IMG/VR virus record: IMGVR_UViG_2648501390_000011
Location: 1-7,926 of that record
DNA: 7,926 bases
Source: a virus
Lineage: Duplodnaviria; Heunggongvirae; Uroviricota; Caudoviricetes
Direction: 5' to 3' (one strand)
Numbering within the stretch: the stretch's first letter is position 1; the number at the start of each line of letters is the position of its first letter. This document shows, piece after piece, positions 1 to 7,926 of this stretch. The position numbers and the translations under genes are program-made. Below the pieces are notes generated by a model that had not been told where the DNA came from, did no database searches, and was given only the letters and a program-made list of their open reading frames with translations.

Positions 1-967
1 CAGGGGAAAAATGTGCATAAATCATAGTCATTTTAATATCTGAATGCCCAAGAATATCTTTCAAAACGAGTATGTTTCCACCGTTCATCATAAAATGACT
101 GGCGAATGTATGGCGCAGAACATGGGTACACTGACCTTCAGGCAGTTCAATACCAGCCCGTTTGACCGCTCGTTCAAAAGCCTTTCTGCATGGCGTGAAT
201 AACTTCCCTCTGTTTTTGGGGAGTTCGTCATAGAGAGCCTGAGATATCGGTACTGTCCTATTTTTCTTTCCTTTCGTCTTTGTATAGGTAATACGGTATT
301 TTGATAATTGGTGGCCCTGTAAGTTTTCCGCTTCACTCCAGCGCGCGCCGGTAGCCAAGCATACCTTTGCGATCATCAACAGACTTGGATTTTGAGAGTT
401 TGCGCAGGCGTCAAGTAGGCGTTTAATTTCCTCCTGAGATAGGAATGCCAATTCACCTTCAGCAATTTTAAATGTTGGAAGCCCTGCCAATGGGTTTGGT
501 GCTGACCAGTGTCCTAGTTTTTTCAATGTGCCGAATACAGATGACAGGTTACGCTGCTCAAGATTAACCGTGCGAGGTTTTACGGGGGACATGAAAACAC
601 CGTCTTCATTTTTGACCTCCCCCTTTAATCTGGCTTCCCGATATTTTGTGAAATCACCTGCTGTCAGTTCCGAGGCAATAGGATTGCCGAGACCGGTACA
701 AATAATTTTTAATTTTGCCATCAAACGCTTTGGGTCAGCGAGTGTCTGACCATACAGGGAATACCACTGCTCAATCACTTCTGACAGTTGTCGCCGATCT
801 TCTTTTTCTCCTAGCCAAGGTTTCTTGTTTACCTCGTCCATGGTGAAATTCTCAAACGCAATGGCTTCGCCTTTCGTCGCAAATTGTTTGCGTACGCGTT
901 TGCCATCTCGCCCGTTTGGGTAGCATTCACATAACCACTTTCCGTTCGGCTGTTTTCTGATGGTCAT
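1..967 (-). CDS. int: Tyrosine recombinase (phage integrase, P2/186 type); N-terminus at 967, C-terminal end lies beyond the left edge of the window
   Basis: Own translation of the minus strand from ATG (967-965) gives an uninterrupted frame down to position 2: MTIRKQPNGKWLCECYPNGRDGKRVRKQFATKGEAIAFE...HVLRHTFASHFMMNGGNILVLKDILGHSDIKMTMIYAHFSP. It contains the HxLRHT box and the catalytic-Tyr region (MIYAHF) typical of tyrosine recombinases. Absent from the ORF track only because there is no in-window stop; the listed 88..336 minus ORF is an out-of-frame shadow. Confidence 0.9.
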   Translation of the reverse strand, partial: MTIRKQPNGKWLCECYPNGRDGKRVRKQFATKGEAIAFENFTMDEVNKKPWLGEKEDRRQLSEVIEQWYSLYGQTLADPKRLMAKLKIICTGLGNPIASELTAGDFTKYREARLKGEVKNEDGVFMSPVKPRTVNLEQRNLSSVFGTLKKLGHWSAPNPLAGLPTFKIAEGELAFLSQEEIKRLLDACANSQNPSLLMIAKVCLATGARWSEAENLQGHQLSKYRITYTKTKGKKNRTVPISQALYDELPKNRGKLFTPCRKAFERAVKRAGIELPEGQCTHVLRHTFASHFMMNGGNILVLKDILGHSDIKMTMIYAHFSP

Positions 968-968
968 A

Positions 969-1601
969 TCAAAGGCTCTTAATGATTTTCAGTGCGCGGC
1001 CTATTACCTCAATGTCATCCAGTTCGCACTCAAACGATGAATCATCCTGATGCACTACTAATCTGTTTCCCGGGAGTCGTGTCAATTTTACAATGCTTTT
1101 TATCCCGTCGATGTCCACTAACCACGTACCATTTACTGGTGGTGTTTGGTTGCGATCTATTAAATAAGAATCACCAGAAGTAGTCACCAGCAGCAGGTTG
1201 CTTGAGTCTGAGGGGAGTATGCTGCTATCAATGATTGCTTTTCCAGCATCGATCAGCAAACCTCCGTTGAGAGTTGCCTTGTCAATTTCAGGAGATACAA
1301 GCTCCGAAAGAGGTTTAACTTTGCTAGAGTTCACGGAATTGATATTTCTTTTAGGGTCAATGTTTGAACCTGGATCGCCCTGTCCGGTAGTTAGCCACAG
1401 TAAAGAAACTCCTGTTTCCAAAGCGCACTGAATCACCCATTCTGCAGGAAAACTATCTCTTAAGTATCTGTTTGCCATAGTGCTTTTTGATGCGCCCAAG
1501 TGATCGCAAAGTTGCTGTCTGGACTTGAAATCATAGGCTGCCATTAGCCTATGGATAGCCTCTCTTCCCCCTGTATTCTCGCCAGCTTTTACTTGTATCA
1601 T
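969..1601 (-). CDS. cI: Phage CI-type repressor (186 CI-like: N-terminal HTH, C-terminal oligomerisation domain)
   Basis: 210-aa ORF. The N-terminus (GGREAIHRLMAAYDFKSRQQLCDHLGASKSTMANRYLRDSFPAEWVIQCALETGVSLLWLTTGQG) matches my recollection of the Phage_CI_repr HTH family. RBS-like AGGA sits upstream of ATG 1601. The stop (TGA, 971-969) is 1 nt from the int ATG, and the gene faces away from a divergent early operon. Confidence 0.8.
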   Translation of the reverse strand: MIQVKAGENTGGREAIHRLMAAYDFKSRQQLCDHLGASKSTMANRYLRDSFPAEWVIQCALETGVSLLWLTTGQGDPGSNIDPKRNINSVNSSKVKPLSELVSPEIDKATLNGGLLIDAGKAIIDSSILPSDSSNLLLVTTSGDSYLIDRNQTPPVNGTWLVDIDGIKSIVKLTRLPGNRLVVHQDDSSFECELDDIEVIGRALKIIKSL

Positions 1602-1613
1602 TTTTTAATCCTG

Positions 1614-1642
1614 TTGACGTATCAAATATTGGATCGTAGTAT
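1614..1642 (+). promoter_or_regulatory. Candidate sigma70 early (pR-like) promoter: TTGACG -17 bp- TAGTAT
   Basis: TTGACG at 1614-1619, a 17-nt spacer, and TAGTAT at 1637-1642 lie in the 119-bp cI/apl intergenic region, oriented toward the + strand early operon that starts at 1721. Confidence 0.45.
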
Positions 1643-2518: not shown

Positions 2519-2719
2519 ATGCTGACGAAAGAACCATCATTTGCATCGCTGCTGGTAAAACAAAGCCCGGCAATGCACTACGGTCACGGCTGGATCATGG
2601 GGGAGGATGGTAAACGCTGGCATCCGTGCCGTTCACAAGATGAATTGCTGGCAGAACTATCTACGAAAAAACGGGGGAACAAATGGCTATTGAAGGCGCT
2701 GCGGCGACTGTTCCATTAA
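2519..2719 (+). CDS. Hypothetical small early protein (occupies the fil/dhr position of the 186 early operon)
   Basis: ATG at 2519 preceded by GAGGTG, which overlaps the cII stop; 66 aa from this start (MLTKEPSFASLLVKQ...). The track's longer 2489 start is less likely. No recognisable motif. Confidence 0.4.
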   Translation: MLTKEPSFASLLVKQSPAMHYGHGWIMGEDGKRWHPCRSQDELLAELSTKKRGNKWLLKALRRLFH

Positions 2720-3024
2720 GCCCCGGTGAACGCCTGAATGGACTTAACCATATTGCGGAGTTAAGGGCGAAAGTATTTGGCCTGAATATTGAGTCAGAGC
2801 TTGAGCGGTTTATTAAAGATATGCGTGATCCACGGGATATCAATAACGAACAAAATAAACGGGCACTGGCTGCTATATTCTTTATGGCAAAAATTCCAGC
2901 TGAACGTCATAGCATCAGCATTAATGAGCTGACCACTGACGAAAAGCGGGAGTTGATTAAAGCAATGAATCATTTTCGTGCAGTGGTGAGCTTATTTCCA
3001 AGACGGCTAACCATGCCGAATTAA
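2683..3024 (+). CDS. Hypothetical early protein, 113 aa
   Basis: ATG 2683 preceded by GGGGG with a 5-nt spacer. Its start overlaps the end of the previous ORF by 37 nt in another frame. No recognisable motif; co-oriented in the early operon. Confidence 0.5.
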   Translation: MAIEGAAATVPLSPGERLNGLNHIAELRAKVFGLNIESELERFIKDMRDPRDINNEQNKRALAAIFFMAKIPAERHSISINELTTDEKRELIKAMNHFRAVVSLFPRRLTMPN

Positions 3025-3091
3025 CCAACTAATGAAATTAATGGCGTAAACCCGCCGGGTATCCCTTTATCTAAATTCAGGAGAATTGATT

Positions 3092-3325
3092 ATGCGTAAT
3101 ATTGAAACCCTCACGACTAAAACCGGACCGGATGATGCAGGGCTTAATATTTTACTGACAGAGGCTCGTCTGGAAGAACGCCGGGCAAGGGCTGAAGCAA
3201 TGGCAGCTCGCCTTGATAGCCTGGCGTGTCATATCACATCCCGCCAGCTAAACCACGTCGAAGCAGCAGAACTACTGCGTGTAACTGCTGAAGCAATCCA
3301 GAACGAAGCGCAGGAGATCCACTAA
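3092..3325 (+). CDS. Small coiled-coil early protein (resembles the DUF2732-type ORFs of P2-like phages)
   Basis: AGGAG at 3078-3082 followed by ATG 3092; the track's 3086 start would be a TTG. 77 aa, Ala/Glu/Arg-rich helical sequence. The stop overlaps the next start (TAATG). Confidence 0.55.
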   Translation: MRNIETLTTKTGPDDAGLNILLTEARLEERRARAEAMAARLDSLACHITSRQLNHVEAAELLRVTAEAIQNEAQEIH

Positions 3326-3552
3326 TGGCTGATGCAATGGATCTTGTACAGCAGCGCGTTGAAGAAGAACGCCAGCGCCATATCCGTGCTGCCCGTGCCA
3401 AAACGCCGGGCGTGTCCCGCGTGCTTTGCATTGAGTGTGAAGCGCCAATTCCGCCAGCACGCCGCCGCGCCATTCCAGGTGTGCAGCTTTGTATTACCTG
3501 TCAGGAAATCGCAGAGCTGAAAGGCAAACATTACAACGGAGGTGCTGTATGA
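3325..3552 (+). CDS. TraR/DksA-family C4 zinc-finger protein
   Basis: 75 aa with two CxxC pairs (CIECEAPI...CITCQE) at the spacing expected for the TraR/DksA zinc finger. The start overlaps the upstream stop, and its own stop overlaps the dam start (ATGA). Confidence 0.75.
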   Translation: MADAMDLVQQRVEEERQRHIRAARAKTPGVSRVLCIECEAPIPPARRRAIPGVQLCITCQEIAELKGKHYNGGAV

Positions 3553-4406
3553 GCACCATCCTGAAATGGGCGGGAAATAAAACCGCCATTATGTCCGAAC
3601 TGAAAAAACACCTTCCTGCTGGCCCGCGACTGGTTGAACCTTTCGCGGGTTCCTGTGCTGTGATGATGGAGACGGATTACCCCAGCTATCTGGTTGCGGA
3701 TATTAATCCTGATTTAATCAACCTCTATAAAAAGGTTGCCGCTGATTGTGAATCGTTTATATCTCGCGCCAGAGTTTTATTTGAGATCGCAAACAGGGAG
3801 GTAGCTTATTACAACATAAGGCAGGAGTTTAATTACTCAACTGAAATTACTGATTTCATGAAAGCGGTATATTTCCTGTATCTCAATCGTCACGGTTACC
3901 GTGGTTTATGTCGCTATAACAAGAGTGGGCATTTCAACATTCCCTACGGTAATTATAAAAATCCGTATTTCCCTGAAAAAGAAATTCGCGCATTTGCAGA
4001 AAAAGCCCAGCGGGCAACGTTTATCTGCACCAGCTTTGATGAAACGCTGGCGATGTTGAAGGCGGGGGATGTGGTGTATTGCGATCCGCCGTATGACGGT
4101 ACGTTTTCCGGCTATCACACTGATGGTTTCACTGAAGATGACCAGTATCACCTAGCATCCGTTCTTGAACATCGATCATCTGAAGGACATCCGGTCATTG
4201 TTTCTAACAGTGACACATCCCTGATTCGTTCGCTGTATCGCAATTTTACTCACCACTATATCAAGGTAAAACGCAGCATCGGTGTGGCAGCTGGCGAGGG
4301 TAAATCAGCAACAGAAATCATCGCTGTTTCCGGGCCGCGCTGCTGGGTGGGATTTGATCCTTCGCGTGGCGTGGATAGTTCTGCCGTGTACGGAGTGCGT
4401 GCATGA
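3549..4406 (+). CDS. dam: DNA adenine methyltransferase, Dam-like (GATC-type N6-adenine MTase)
   Basis: GGAGG at 3538-3542 followed by ATG 3549. The 285-aa product has the SAM-binding motif ([10 protein letters not shown]), the catalytic DPPY motif ([10 protein letters not shown]) and long Dam-like stretches ([46 protein letters not shown]). The track's 3489 start is an upstream in-frame extension through the TraR-like gene. Confidence 0.9.
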
Positions 4407-6817
4407 GCCATGCTGATATGAACAACTGCAGCGGCTTTAACGAGATCGCCGCAGCATTCTCATGGAACAGCCCGAAAAAGGCCATTAACCCTTATCTGGA
4501 CCCGGCGGAAGTTGCGCCGGTTTCTGCGCTTTCAAACCTGATCACTCTGTACGCTGCCGATAACGAGCAGGAACAGCTGCGCCGTGAGGCGCTGAGTGAT
4601 CAGGTCTGGGAGCGTTATTTCTTTAATGAATCCCGTGATCCTGTCCAGCGCGAAATGGAGCAGGATAAGCTCATTAGTCGGGCAAAGCTGGCGCATGAGC
4701 AGCAGCGTTTTAATCCGGATATGGTCATTCTGGCGGACGTCAACGCCCAGCCTTCCCATATCAGCAAGCCGCTGATGCAACGTATTGAATACTTCAGCAG
4801 CCTGGGCAGGCCAAAGGCTTATTCCCGCTATTTGCGTGAGACGATTAAGCCATGTCTGGAACGACTGGAGCATGTACGCGAGAGTCAGCTATCCACTTCT
4901 TTTCGCTTTATGGCAAGCCATGAAGGGCTGGACGGCCTGCTGATTCTGCCTGAAATGAGTCAGGATCATGTGAAACGCCTGTCCACCCTGGTAGCTGCGC
5001 ATATGAGCATGTGCCTTGATGCAGCTTGTGGCGATTTGTATGCCACCGATGACGTTAAGCCAGAAGAAATCCGCAAGACATGGGAAAAGGTGGCGGCGGA
5101 AACCCTGCGTCTGGATGTCATCCCACCTGCGTTTGAGCAACTCCGTCGGAAAAGAAACCGCCGTAAACCCGTGCCCTATGAGCTCATTCCGGGTTCGCTG
5201 GCGCGTATGTTGTGCGGCGACTGGTGGTATCGGAAATTATGGAAGATGCGTTGCGAATGGCGGGAAGAGCAGTTGCGCGCTGTTTGCCTGGTCAGCAAAA
5301 AAGCATCTCCTTATGTCAGCTATGAAGCCGTGATGCATAAACGTGAGCAGCGCCGTAAGTCGCTGGAGTTTTTCCGTTCTCATGAACTGGTGAACGAAGA
5401 CGGCGACACGCTGGACATGGAGGATGTGGTAAACGCCAGCAGCAGCAACCCTGCGCATCGCCGCAATGAGATGATGGCCTGTGTTAAAGGTCTGGAGCTT
5501 ATCGCGGAAATGCGCGGTGACTGCGCCGTTTTCTACACTATCACCTGTCCGTCGCGTTTCCATTCCACGCTAAATAACGGCAGACCAAACCCGACCTGGA
5601 CAAACGCGACGGTAAGACAAAGCAGCGATTATCTGGTCGGCATGTTTGCTGCATTTCGTAAGGCGATGCACAAAGCCGGGTTGCGCTGGTATGGCGTGCG
5701 GGTGGCTGAGCCGCATCATGACGGCACAGTTCACTGGCACCTGTTGTGTTTCATGCGCAAAAAAGACCGCCGTGCCATTACTGCATTACTGCGTAAGTTT
5801 GCCATCCGTGAAGACCGCGAGGAGCTGGGCAATAACACTGGGCCGCGCTTTAAGTCTGAGTTGATTAACCCGCGCAAAGGAACGCCGACAAGCTACATCG
5901 CGAAATATATCAGTAAGAACATTGACGGTCGTGGTCTGGCTGGCGAGATCAGCAAGGAAACGGGTAAATCTCTGCGTGATAACGCTGAATACGTGAATGC
6001 CTGGGCGTCTCTGCATCGTGTTCAGCAATTCCGCTTCTTTGGTATTCCGGGGCGTCAGGCTTATCGTGAACTTCGCTTGCTGGCTGGTCAGGCGGCAAGG
6101 CAACAGGGTGACAAAAAAGCAGGTGCGCCGGTACTGGATAACCCGCGTCTTGATGCCATTCTGGCTGCTGCTGATGCTGGCTGTTTTGCCACCTACATCA
6201 TGAAGCAGGGCGGCGTGCTGGTTCCCCGCAAATATCACCTTATCAGAACAGCTTATGAAATTAACGAAGAGCCGACCGCCTATGGCGATCACGGTATTCG
6301 TATTTATGGCATCTGGTCACCCATTGCAGAGGGCAAGATCTGCACTCATGCCGTGAAGTGGAAAATGGTTCGTAAGGCCGTTGACGTTCAGGAGGCGGCA
6401 GCCGACCAGGGCGCTTGCGCCCCTTGGACTCGTGGCAATAACTGTCCCCTTGCTGAAAATTTGAACCAACAAGGGAAAGACAAATCAGCTTATGGGGATA
6501 CCAGAACGGACATTACCCGCATGGATGACAAGGAGTTGCACGATTACCTGCACAGTATGAGCAAAAAAGAGCGCCGGGAACTGGCTGCAAGGTTACGCCT
6601 GGTGAAACCGAAACGGCGTAAAGACTACAAACAGCGAATTACAGACCATCAGCGACAGCAGCTCGTCTATGAGCTGAAGTCCAGAGGATTTGATGGCAGC
6701 GAGAAAGAGGTCGGTTTACTCCTTCGCGGCGGCAGTATTCCGTCAGGAGCAGGCCTGCGTATCTTCTATCGGAACCAGCGTTTGCAGGAAGATGATAAGT
6801 GGCGGGATCTGTATTAA
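4403..6817 (+). CDS. A: Phage replication initiation endonuclease gpA (HUH rolling-circle initiator, P2 A family)
   Basis: 804-aa ORF. HUH metal-binding motif ([15 protein letters not shown]) and a downstream paired-tyrosine motif (YIAKYISKN), as in P2 gpA. The start overlaps the dam stop (ATGA at 4403-4406). Confidence 0.9.
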
Positions 6818-6909
6818 TTACGCGGGTTAACAATTCGTGCTCTTAATAATACCAGGCATATCAGGCTGATGAACGTAAAAAAACGTTTTACATCAGTAAG
6901 ATTATTATA

Positions 6910-6929
6910 TACTGTAAATATAAACAGTG
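6910..6929. promoter_or_regulatory. LexA (SOS) box, TACTGTAAATATAAACAGTG
   Basis: CTGT-N8-ACAG with an AT-rich spacer; 17/20 match to the E. coli consensus TACTGTATATATATACAGTA. It lies 40 bp upstream of the RBS (AGGAGG, 6960-6965) of the ORF at 6970 and overlaps candidate -10 hexamers. Confidence 0.7.
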
Positions 6930-6969
6930 GTTATGTATACAGTATTGCTTTGGTGTCATAGGAGGAAAG

Positions 6970-7158
6970 ATGCAGGACTATTTTTTGGAGTCTTTGAAGC
7001 TCCAGCGCATTGATTTTTTTCTTAAGCTTGTAGCGGCTAGTGAGTGTAGTGATGAAGAGAAGGGGCTGGCCCTGCAGTGGGTTTCTGAACTAACAGATGA
7101 ACTCATGGCAAAAATCAGAACCCACGAATACAACCGCTCAATGGATGTCATCAGCTGA
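6970..7158 (+). CDS. Small SOS-regulated protein, candidate N-terminal part of a Tum-like antirepressor
   Basis: 62-aa ORF with a strong RBS, directly downstream of the LexA box. Its stop (TGA 7156-7158) overlaps the RBS of the DinI-like ORF. Function inferred from context only. Confidence 0.5.
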   Translation: MQDYFLESLKLQRIDFFLKLVAASECSDEEKGLALQWVSELTDELMAKIRTHEYNRSMDVIS

Positions 7159-7168
7159 GGTGACTTTT

Positions 7169-7402
7169 ATGCGCATTGAAATAATGATCGATAAAGAGCA
7201 GAAGATTAGCCAGTCTACCCTGGACGCTCTGGAGTCCGAGCTTTACCGCAACCTGCGCCCCCTGTATCCCAAAACGGTAATTCGTATCCGCAAAGGTAGC
7301 TCTAACGGTGTGGAACTTACCGGACTGCAACTGGACGAAGAAAGAAAACAAGTGATGAAAATTATGCAGAAAGTGTGGGAAGACGACAGCTGGCTGCATT
7401 AA
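7169..7402 (+). CDS. dinI: DinI-family protein (SOS-inducible; DinI/Tum C-terminal-domain-like)
   Basis: GAGG at 7157-7160 followed by ATG 7169; 77 aa (MRIEIMIDKEQKISQSTLDALESELYRNLRPLYPKTVIRIRKGSSNGVELTGLQLDEERKQVMKIMQKVWEDDSWLH). Length and pattern match E. coli DinI as I recall it (MRIEV...start, acidic W-containing C-terminus). The track's 7097 start is an upstream extension in the same frame. Confidence 0.75.
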   Translation: MRIEIMIDKEQKISQSTLDALESELYRNLRPLYPKTVIRIRKGSSNGVELTGLQLDEERKQVMKIMQKVWEDDSWLH

Positions 7403-7537
7403 GAAACGTTGCTGGCGTCTGAACTTGCTTCTGGCGTCAGCAAGGTTGAACAACGAGCCCTTGCGAGGCGTTAGCTCTGTAGTGCATGTCTATGCCGCAT
7501 GAGATCGCATGATCGTTTGAGGATCGTTTTTGCTAAG

Positions 7538-7561
7538 GCCCGCCAGAACTGGCGGGCTTTT
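7538..7561 (+). terminator. Rho-independent terminator (GCCCGCCA-GAAC-TGGCGGGC-TTTT)
   Basis: Perfect 8-bp GC-rich stem with a 4-nt loop, followed by TTTT; 135 bp downstream of the dinI-like stop and upstream of the AT-rich cargo gene. Confidence 0.6.
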
Positions 7562-7726
7562 GCGTAGATCATGCAGGTGCATGAAAACCACTGCATAAAG
7601 CGGGCAGGCGTGGCGGGGATACGAGCGCGCGCAACAGTGTAACAATCTGGATCTAATGTGATATAGTTACTGTAAATATTATTAACTATTCTTATATGCA
7701 TTATTAAATATTTTAATGGAGCGTTT

Positions 7727-7926
7727 ATGGAAAAATATCAAGATGAGGAATATGTAGATGATTTAACTGAGCGTGTTTTTCTCATTAAGCAACAACTGGA
7801 AGCGGGAAAACTAAAAATAGCTCATCATCTTGTAGAAGGTTTTATTGAAAGTTTTAAAAGAATAAGGCTGCGACAGGATGGTAAAGTTGACCCTTCTACT
7901 GTTGATGGCAGAATAAGGGCTATGGG
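7727..7926 (+). CDS. Hypothetical protein, N-terminal 66 codons only (continues past the right edge); AT-rich accessory gene
   Basis: GGAG at 7718-7721 followed by ATG 7727. Own translation MEKYQDEEYVDDLTERVFLIKQQLEAGKLKIAHHLVEGFIESFKRIRLRQDGKVDPSTVDGRIRAM has no stop before the window end. By my count the first 64 nt are about 31% G+C, against about 52% in a sampled 60 nt of gpA. Confidence 0.55.
   Translation, partial: MEKYQDEEYVDDLTERVFLIKQQLEAGKLKIAHHLVEGFIESFKRIRLRQDGKVDPSTVDGRIRAM

Follow-up and report, generated by a model that had tools for sequence, protein, structure and literature searches.

The window that we analyzed, a stretch of DNA 7,926 nt in length, carries in order int, cI, apl, cII, fil, a DUF5347 gene, a tR1-like terminator, a DUF2732 gene, a TraR-type zinc-finger gene (TraR-zf), a Dam methyltransferase gene, gpA and a LexA-controlled Tum/DinI module; it represents the immunity and early region of a phage or prophage of the 186/Fels-2 type (Peduoviridae). 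The traits of a P2/186-type operon are present: DUF2732 and a TraR-type zinc finger lie upstream of A, after a terminator and joined by short overlaps, and a gpA-family initiator has an ori-like core inside its own gene. The features on which our argument draws are as follows.

1614..1642, + strand: putative pR-like early promoter (TTGACG-17-TAGTAT, promoter scan), at the position of pR in 186
1614-1635 and 1644-1665: 22-nt direct repeats, probable CI operators, the first overlapped by the pR-like promoter
3042..3072, + strand: tR1-like hairpin, GGCG-TAAACC-CGCC followed by a weak T-rich tail, within the 67-nt gap preceding the chain
3092..3325, + strand: DUF2732 gene, 77 aa, first gene of the chain, preceded by its own SD AGGAG at 3079-3083 (Pfam PF10809, 2.9e-29)
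3323..3327, + strand: junction 1, TAATG, 1-nt overlap of DUF2732 stop and zinc-finger start, SD AGGAG at 3312-3316
3325..3552, + strand: TraR/DksA-type C4 zinc-finger gene, 75 aa (PF01258, zf-dskA_traR, 3.1e-11)
3549..3552, + strand: junction 2, ATGA, 4-nt overlap of zinc-finger stop and Dam start, SD GGAGG at 3538-3542
3549..4406, + strand: Dam gene, 285 aa (PF02086, MethyltransfD12, 3.3e-76)
4403..4406, + strand: junction 3, ATGA, 4-nt overlap of Dam stop and gpA start, SD GGAG at 4392-4395 within the Dam C-terminal tail
4403..6817, + strand: gpA gene, 804 aa (PF05840, Phage_GPA, 1.1e-126)
4502..4533, + strand: candidate tM1-like hairpin, CCGGCG-GAAGTTG-CGCCGG followed by TTTCTGCGCTTTC, about 100 nt into gpA
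6417..6445, + strand: probable ori and nick-site core within the gpA gene, GCGCCCCTTGGACTCGTGGCAATAACTGT, resembling the annotated P2 and 186 ori GCGCC..TCGGAGTYCTGTCAATAACTGT

Read directly from the sequence, the chain runs from the ATG at 3092 to the final base of the gpA stop codon at 6817. The four genes and their three junctions, one TAATG and two ATGA, lie exactly where the original prediction had placed them, and all four ORFs are backed by Pfam families; the zinc-finger protein additionally scores 65.8 bits against TIGR02419 (cut-off 59.7). An SD motif precedes each of the four starts at spacings of 6-8 nt (8, 6 and 7 nt at the three junctions), and at all three junctions the stop/start overlap and the SD in the 3' end of the upstream gene together form the geometry of termination-reinitiation, a -4 or -1 overlap with the SD inside the upstream gene (PMC6728339). 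In most prokaryotic groups, some 15% of gene pairs are co-directional overlaps (PMC6728339). We compared 32 Dam-carrying loci from different species, whose Dam proteins are 37-96% identical. In 24 of them the Dam stop codon shares 4 or 1 nt with an ATG or GTG start of the following long ORF, irrespective of which gene that is; the start is ATG in 20, and because chance easily gives an A/G/TTG overlap at a TGA stop, the ATG-only tally, 20/32, is the one to go by. The GAGG-N7-ATGA context of junction 3 is found again in diverged relatives, and the -1 junction between DUF2732 and the zinc finger also occurs in 186, P2 and most related loci. The overlap pattern is more than chance, yet unremarkable, since such overlaps are common in phage operons.

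That a full Dam-like methyltransferase sits directly upstream of gpA, as had been proposed, is borne out by several comparisons. The PF02086 profile aligns over its entire length (positions 1-253 of 253) with residues 7-244 at 256.8 bits (cut-off 22), TIGR00571 scores 320.8 bits (cut-off 114.85), and the E. coli Dam structures 2g1p and 4gol match at 5e-74. Motif IV, VVYCDPPY at residues 174-181, and the AdoMet-binding motif I (F-x-G), EPFAGSC at residues 30-36, align with VVYCDPPY and EPFVGAG of E. coli Dam (EcoDam), and 31 of 32 diverged homologues retain DPPY. Judged from sequence, the protein is solidly assigned as a complete Dam-family N6-adenine methyltransferase. EcoDam contacts GATC through K9, Y119, N120, L122, R124, P134 and Y138 (PMC4417163), and six of these seven residues are identical in the window Dam (K6, Y117, L120, R122, P132 and Y136, equivalent to K9, Y119, L122, R124, P134 and Y138), including R124, which does most to discriminate the fourth base pair; at the position of N120 the clade of the window Dam has R118. 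GATC is therefore the most likely predicted specificity. The gene evolves under purifying selection, with dN/dS of 0.08-0.17, a range to which two relatives (L085 and L092) do not contribute because internal shifts in their equal-length genes inflate dN. Against the housekeeping-Dam equivalog NF008152 the protein scores 289.3 bits, under the cut-off of 441, and is therefore a phage-type paralogue rather than a host dam gene. No restriction endonuclease gene lies beside it: its neighbors are the TraR zinc-finger gene and gpA, and the sole nuclease domain among the window ORFs scanned is that of gpA. Dam is therefore an orphan enzyme and not part of a restriction-modification system.

The gpA protein shares 31-33% identity with the A proteins of 186 and P2 and has an invariant HUH region, EPHHDGTxHWH, which identifies it by homology as a rolling-circle replication initiator and nicking endonuclease. 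There is no GATC within the probable ori core at 6417-6445, the closest being at 6337, and we rejected the idea that a GATC in the origin connects Dam with nicking by gpA. The window as a whole shows neither avoidance nor enrichment of GATC (33 observed vs 35.8 expected, with other 4-mer palindromes similar), so that we also rejected GATC content as a signature of selection; the count holds no hint that GATC-directed nucleases have exerted selection.

The pR-like element at 1614 is the sole promoter-like site on the + strand upstream of the chain, and the promoter scan found no + strand sigma-70-like site between 1643 and 7638, for which reason an internal promoter for Dam was rejected. The pR-like promoter would drive the entire rightward operon. 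The 17-nt core of the tR1-like hairpin, GGCGTAAACCCGCCGGG, is identical to the annotated 186 terminator tR1 at 17 of 17 positions; the tM1-like hairpin occupies the position of the annotated tM1 of 186, and 12 of 14 relatives keep its stem with no more than one mismatch, L092 carrying one both-sided change. Folding energies of the two hairpins are no better than those of shuffled sequences and a consensus scan called neither as a terminator; the function of the tR1-like fold is therefore proposed from homology only, and we treat both hairpins as homology-based terminator candidates. The Dam start itself lies inside a hairpin (GGAGGUGCU / AGCACC, z = -2.98), which we considered and rejected as a conserved mask of the RBS: relatives at 70-77% Dam identity lose it with no compensatory changes. 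In accessibility calculations the three junction RBSs resemble random positions, and Rfam detected no RNA families in the window. With no conserved RNA structure masking the downstream RBSs, we infer the mechanism of coupling from junction geometry and from phage 186 only.

Phage 186 shares the backbone of the window (apl, cII, fil, tR1, DUF2732, zinc finger, variable slot and A, with -1/-4 overlaps and a hairpin early in A), but its A is 33% identical to the window gpA, its immunity region and operators differ, and in place of Dam its slot holds CP82-CP83-orf84 (an exonuclease, a DUF5405 gene and a PAPS-reductase-like gene). The DUF2732 protein of the window is a homologue of 186 CP80 and P2 orf80, annotated as non-essential in 186, and the zinc finger is a homologue of 186 CP81 and P2 orf82. 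P2 has the same overlapped backbone with orf83 at the Dam position. Gaps along the chain are -1/-4/-4 in the window, -1/-4/-4/-4/-4 in 186 and -1/-1/-4/-11 in P2. The 186 record notes that [quoted passage not shown], that tR1 is "anti-terminated during early lytic..." and that tM1 is a [quoted passage not shown]. Because 186 and P2 carry an overlapped chain with other genes at the Dam position, and in view of the 186 note on A translation, coupling is a property of the operon backbone and not of Dam. The tight coupling had been taken to imply stoichiometric co-expression of Dam with gpA. This does not follow, since coupling is kept with non-Dam upstream genes and equal protein amounts require 100% coupling efficiency (PMC6728339).

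The slot before gpA is variable on a much broader scale. A Dam homologue lies upstream of gpA in 33 of 80 species-level gpA loci, distributed over many genera, while the occupant of 38 of the 80 goes unrecognized by our reference set; these counts are homology matches within 3.5 kb upstream of gpA and not gene chains, because a first-ATG rule broke many chains (GTG starts of gpA, or an internal ATG picked). Other slot genes include C5 cytosine methylases directly after Dam, a Lar restriction-alleviation domain, PAPS-reductase-like genes, exonucleases and DUF3850/ASCH proteins. The occupants share a theme of DNA modification and anti-restriction.

We hold it to be probable, if well short of certain, that Dam is an orphan GATC-type enzyme in this variable slot, co-transcribed from a CI-repressed pR and translationally coupled into gpA, that methylates replicating phage DNA against GATC nucleases. 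Having no expression of its own, Dam would be transcribed from pR only after infection or induction, by way of read-through at tR1. Ribosomes would load at the DUF2732 start and pass on by termination-reinitiation over the -1/-4/-4 junctions; translation to the end of the gene preceding A would help A to start, and would probably prevent transcription from stopping at the hairpin early in A. The enzyme is predicted to methylate GATC on phage DNA during gpA-driven rolling-circle replication. E. coli, Salmonella and Klebsiella, which usually serve as hosts, have a Dam of their own, so that a protective role is not obviously needed. The most likely benefit would be that progeny DNA is kept modified when replication outpaces host Dam or when host Dam is scarce; progeny DNA so modified may be protected from nucleases that cut unmethylated GATC.

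The same facts can be read with less emphasis on restriction. The phage Dam might support replication itself, by rapidly and fully methylating the GATC sites of rolling-circle DNA so that SeqA does not bind and MutH does not nick. Its position directly before the initiator, translated just ahead of it, and its apparent expression only with the lytic operon suit such a role, as does its rank as the commonest recognized slot cargo (the 33 of 80 loci above), and in Dam+ hosts protection from restriction appears redundant. However, 186 and P2 replicate by the same gpA system with no Dam (P2 encodes no methylase; PMC3091744), the ori core is free of GATC, and the co-occurring C5 methylases and Lar point to anti-restriction rather than to SeqA or MutH; on balance we think this explanation unlikely. 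Less probable still is that Dam methylates regulatory GATC sites of the phage, for instance in an operator or promoter, and so times expression or biases the choice between lysis and lysogeny. A GATC at 1632 does fall in the spacer of pR and within the first of the 22-nt operator repeats, three more lie within 23 bp at 7503-7525, and host Dam influences the excision of Salmonella prophages, SopE-phi included (PMC7380047). Nevertheless, the second operator repeat has no GATC, GATC density overall is as expected, no conserved GATC-bearing regulatory motif was identified, and host Dam would already methylate the same sites.

At the other extreme, any translated ORF overlapping A might suffice as a relay, Dam then being mainly mobile and nearly neutral cargo. 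The unrelated slot genes of 186, P2 and many other species would fit, with the overlap kept and no recognized gene in 38 of the 80 loci, and slot genes are annotated as non-essential in 186. But a neutral passenger would decay, and the low dN/dS of Dam, its intact catalytic motifs in 31 of 32 homologues and its recurrence across many genera make a mere relay improbable, to about the same degree as a regulatory role. Least probable of all is lysogenic conversion, in which Dam expressed from the prophage would alter host methylation, mismatch repair or replication timing. Dam overproduction perturbs E. coli. Moreover, a Fels-2-like prophage with the same module was amplified in colistin-evolved K. 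pneumoniae, where the authors speculated on the methylase, themselves calling the link "a speculation" (PMC7826664). The original prediction had likewise raised effects on host mismatch repair and SeqA timing; in a lysogen these are unlikely, since Dam would depend on a CI-repressed pR located ahead of a tR1-like terminator, and no promoter-like site occurs on the + strand inside the operon.

A known defense hotspot lies just downstream of gpA in P2/186-like phages. We suggest, tentatively and with less confidence than for Dam itself, that the slot between zinc finger and gpA might be a counter-defense hotspot of these phages, an early-expressed mirror of the defense hotspot, with cargo swapped as cassettes (Dam, C5 methylases, Lar, PAPS-reductase-like genes, exonucleases, ASCH/DUF3850) that each keep the stop/start overlap. 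Each cassette would have to keep it, since in this backbone translation of gpA would depend on the overlap. If so, Dam would be one allele of a modular anti-restriction locus, and the overlap rule would limit which genes the slot can capture.

Taken alone, the module matters little: it is annotated in published phage genomes and present in thousands of enterobacterial assemblies, Dam function was reported in 1990 for a near-identical protein, and coupling to gene A has been described for 186. What changes is its interpretation, in that coupling is no functional link between Dam and gpA, and any slot cargo inherits it from the backbone. As a place where DNA-modification and anti-restriction genes gather, the slot may merit a systematic look beside the hotspot downstream of gpA. 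Clinical E. coli, Salmonella and Klebsiella carry this prophage so commonly that there is also practical value in knowing whether Dam gives it a wider host range or changes methylome data obtained from induced cultures.

Among known systems, EcoDam (PDB 2g1p) has the fold family and length range of the window Dam, which differs in being phage-borne, orphan and part of a lytic operon, and in ending with a C-terminal tail of 22 aa, within which the ribosome-binding site of gpA is located. Orphan Dam-family enzymes are found on other phage genomes (T4 Dam, P1 Dam and many more), with a Dam-family match in 1125 of 50,697 phage records, but these are only 25-35% identical to the window Dam and lie in unrelated genomic contexts; T4 Dam structures match it at 5e-18. 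Much closer is the Dam of retron Ec67. The exact window protein belongs to a 4038-member cluster that includes a "retron EC67 DNA adenine methylase", 98% identical and likewise 285 aa, with a name transferred by similarity. No retron is present in the window. The retron Ec67 element was later reported to be a 186-related prophage (Dodd and Egan 1996). By its title, Hsu et al. 1990 reports that the Ec67 element encodes "Dam methylase functions" (cited in PMC7826664).

The closest likeness is to RE-2010 of Salmonella, Cartapus of Escherichia and Fels-2-type prophages (Peduoviridae: Felsduovirus, Elveevirus), which share with the window the order DUF5347, DUF2732, DksA-like zinc finger, methyltransferase, gpA, small ORF and DinI. 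In RE-2010 and Cartapus the gene lengths of 234, 228, 858 and 2415 nt and the 1-, 4- and 4-nt overlaps are those of the window, and in phages of this type the shared part of the window DNA is 92.5% identical and Dam 97% identical. Chain differences are allelic only, whereas rightward from about 7632 the cargo that separates DinI from the portal gene is not the same. The Dam-type arrangement is also annotated in a prophage of K. pneumoniae kp52145 (PMC7826664). Dam had been described as fused into the replication operon, but this gives it no special status, since the backbone is standard for P2/186 and the Dam version is annotated in RE-2010, Cartapus and the K. pneumoniae prophage. Relatives of gpA are encoded on at least 598 viral contigs, and in 183 complete E. 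coli genomes a match extends over 80% or more of the window. The Dam-bearing chain is an ordinary and very common 186/Fels-2-type operon of E. coli and its relatives, annotated and largely understood.

The window corresponds to the immunity and early region of a Peduoviridae member of 186/Fels-2 type, and its early genes lead into a chain of four overlapping genes that ends in gpA, the rolling-circle replication initiator. The identity of these genes and the architecture of the chain are near certain.

Features of the window (coordinates, strand where assigned, identity and basis)
2-967, minus strand, integrase, cut by the window edge
969-1601, minus strand, 186-type CI repressor (Pfam)
1721-1969, Apl/Cox-like gene (Pfam)
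2002-2511, CII (Pfam)
2519-2719, Fil (Pfam)
2683-3024, DUF5347 gene (Pfam)
3092-3325, plus strand, DUF2732 gene, 77 aa, start ATG at 3092 (Pfam DUF2732)
3323-3327, plus strand, junction DUF2732/zinc finger, TAATG (sequence reading)
3325-3552, plus strand, DksA/TraR C4 zinc-finger gene, 75 aa (Pfam)
3549-3552, plus strand, junction zinc finger/Dam, ATGA (sequence reading)
3549-4406, plus strand, Dam gene, 285 aa (Pfam D12-class N6-adenine methyltransferase family)
4403-4406, plus strand, junction Dam/gpA, ATGA (sequence reading)
4403-6817, plus strand, gpA gene, 804 aa (Pfam Phage_GPA)
7169-7402, DinI/Tum-like gene (Pfam)

The chain coordinates and the three stop/start overlaps of the original prediction are all borne out by the ORF list and by reading of the sequence. 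The DUF2732 start is preceded by a Shine-Dalgarno sequence, AGGAG, at 3079-3083, and those of the three downstream starts lie within the preceding gene (AGGAG 3312-3316, GGAGG 3538-3542 and GGAG 4392-4395). Ribosome-binding-site accessibility at the junctions is no different from background, and a hairpin that would mask the Dam ribosome-binding site (z = -2.98) was rejected, being lost in relatives without compensation. No RNA family was found in the window with Rfam. Further upstream, fil shares 37 nt with the DUF5347 gene, read in different frames (2683-2719); the same overlap is found again in many related loci of other genera, which marks this long overlap as conserved and not as a miscalled start.

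The Dam protein aligns with E. coli Dam structures over residues 4-263 (5e-74) and passes TIGR00571, while its score against the housekeeping-Dam equivalog, 289 bits, falls below the cut-off of 441, which marks it as a phage-type paralogue. Among the GATC-contacting residues of EcoDam (R124, L122, P134, Y119, N120, K9 and Y138; PMC4417163), six of seven are identical in the HMMER alignment, the exception being N120, replaced by Arg118; this arginine is common to the closest Dam clade, and asparagine is retained in more distant Dams of the same genomic position. Residues 117-118 correspond to window 3897-3902, and in EcoDam Asn120 hydrogen-bonds the base beside the intercalating Tyr119. The DPPY motif is present in 31 of 32 Dam homologues, and dN/dS against usable relatives is 0.08-0.17. 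No restriction endonuclease lies next to Dam in the window, and we therefore regard it as an orphan enzyme. One member of its cluster carries the name 'retron EC67 DNA adenine methylase' and shares 98% identity with it; for the Ec67 element itself, 'Dam methylase functions' are reported in the title of Hsu et al. 1990, as cited in PMC7826664.

The position between the zinc-finger gene and gpA is a variable slot. With an alignment of gpA from the window, 186 and P2 as the query, 80 loci were retrieved, one genome per species; 33 of them have a same-strand Dam homologue no more than 3.5 kb upstream of gpA. Slot proteins outside a small reference set were examined with Pfam.

Slot contents in the 80 loci
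Dam alone, 26
Dam and PAPS-reductase-like, 6
Exonuclease and Dam, 1
DUF5405, 4
PAPS-reductase-like, 3
Exonuclease and DUF5405, 2
No match to the reference set, 38

Example loci of other slot cargo
L127, 3015-3944, C5 cytosine methyltransferase directly after Dam (Pfam)
L143, 3021-3938, C5 cytosine methyltransferase directly after Dam (Pfam)
L152, 2085-2864, DUF3850 protein with a Lar restriction-alleviation domain (Pfam)
L106, 1435-2322, Rv2179c-like exonuclease (Pfam)

Pfam also assigned DUF3850/ASCH proteins, Rv2179c-like 3'-5' exonucleases, one Ash/derepression protein and one DUF5405-related protein to the slot. The PAPS-reductase-like genes come after Dam in the six loci that carry both. 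In 24 of 32 diverged Dam loci Dam ends in a 4- or 1-nt overlap with a start of the long ORF that follows (ATG in 20), whether that gene is gpA, a PAPS-reductase-like gene or another. Because the overlap is independent of the next gene, and co-directional overlaps make up ~15% of gene pairs in most groups of prokaryotes (PMC6728339), the overlap rule belongs to the slot.

Phages 186 and P2 have the overlapped chain as well; it is a feature of the backbone and not of Dam. In 186 it runs DUF2732 (CP80), zinc finger (CP81), exonuclease (CP82), DUF5405 (CP83), PAPS-reductase-like (orf84) and A, with -1/-4/-4/-4/-4 junctions, and in P2 the junctions of orf80-81-82-83-A are -1/-1/-4/-11. The 186 record states that 'translation to end of orf84 appears necessary for translation of A protein', lists tR1, upstream of CP80, among several terminators anti-terminated during early lytic development, and describes tM1, ~85 nt into A, as the 'expected terminator for lytic transcripts in absence of translation of A gene'. 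The 17-nt tR1 core of 186 is unchanged in the 67-nt gap ahead of the window's DUF2732 gene, and ~100 nt into gpA, at 4502-4533, there is a hairpin followed by a U-rich tail. Among 14 relatives with 63-88% identity in the best gpA segment, 12 keep the stem of this hairpin (at most 1 mismatch), and one pair is changed on both sides. Both hairpins fold no better than shuffled sequence and are thus homology-based candidates only. Four GATC sites within the first 240 nt of gpA (4444-4637) flank the tM1-like hairpin; about one would be expected at window-average density, and the significance is doubtful given multiple windows.

Upstream of the chain there is only one sigma-70-like plus-strand site, at 1614-1642. 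It coincides in part with the first of two direct repeats of 22 nt, set 30 nt apart (1614-1665; TTGACGTATCAAATATTGGATC and TTGGTGTATCAAATATTGAATC). These repeats, which overlap this pR-like promoter, are probably CI operators, and their sequence is unrelated to the operators of 186; a GATC occurs in the first repeat only, at 1632, within the promoter spacer. Beyond gpA, a canonical LexA box, CTGT-N8-ACAG (CTGTAAATATAAACAG, 6912-6927), lies within an imperfect palindrome (6909-6945) and is followed by an ORF of 62 aa (6970-7158) and then by the DinI/Tum-like gene. This arrangement matches the SOS-controlled p95-tum module of 186, and induction is therefore probably by way of an anti-repressor and not CI cleavage. 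By analogy with 186, Dam would be silent in the lysogen and produced with gpA after induction or infection, an expectation that argues against the originally suggested influence on mismatch repair or SeqA timing in a lysogenic host. Nor does stoichiometric co-expression of Dam and gpA, also predicted originally, follow from the overlap: as Huber et al. point out, equal protein amounts would need 100% coupling efficiency (PMC6728339).

In the sequence of events that we propose, transcription would begin at pR and read through tR1, ribosomes would enter at the start codon of the DUF2732 gene, reinitiate at each of the three junctions and, by translating Dam to its end, promote gpA initiation, and Dam would then methylate GATC on replicating phage DNA. 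As for what that methylation achieves, we infer that the role with the best support is to shield progeny DNA against nucleases sensitive to methylation; we would give it close to an even chance because Dam keeps company in the slots of other species with C5 methylases, Lar and PAPS-reductase-like enzymes. That Dam instead averts SeqA/MutH action on under-methylated replication products ranks second and seems unlikely. GATC is neither avoided nor enriched in the window (33 observed, 35.8 expected), and none falls in the ori-like core (6417-6445). The window's only local GATC cluster (7503-7567) comprises three sites within 23 bp (7503, 7511 and 7522) directly 5' of a strong hairpin and T-tail (7532-7563) and a fourth at 7567.

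The arrangement of Dam before gpA, as originally described, is already known. Of 50,697 phage records, 1125 contain a gene of the Dam family. Clustering at 90% identity places the window's Dam among 4038 members, and public collections already contain exact copies of all four chain proteins. DNA identity is 95.5% to Klebsiella phage records over the whole window, up to 95.9% to E. coli chromosomes and 92.5% to Salmonella phage RE-2010 in the shared part; among 5426 complete genomes searched, 1348 match the window partially and 183 over at least 80% of it. At least 598 gpA relatives were confirmed on viral contigs, and in the best 80 of these (97-99% identity) the order DUF5347, DUF2732, zinc finger, Dam, A is kept in 73. 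In their annotation, RE-2010 and Cartapus have genes, gene lengths and overlaps identical to the window chain, with the methylase named 'DNA methyltransferase' or 'Dam DNA adenine methylase', and the gene table of the Fels-2-like prophage of K. pneumoniae kp52145 has a coordinate pattern equal to the window's (PMC7826664).

Most related phages and E. coli prophages cease to match the window at ~7632-7646; beyond lie an AT-rich stretch and a new ORF that starts at 7727, runs off the window and has no Pfam match in its first 66 aa; in CP019275.1 the equivalent gene is ~1.7 kb, annotated as frameshifted, and lies ahead of the portal gene. The segment 7632-7926 is the start of the variable locus between gpA and gpQ, the well-known downstream defence hotspot of P2-like phages (PMC9122126). 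The slot ahead of gpA resembles a counter-defence locus, and may be an under-described one.
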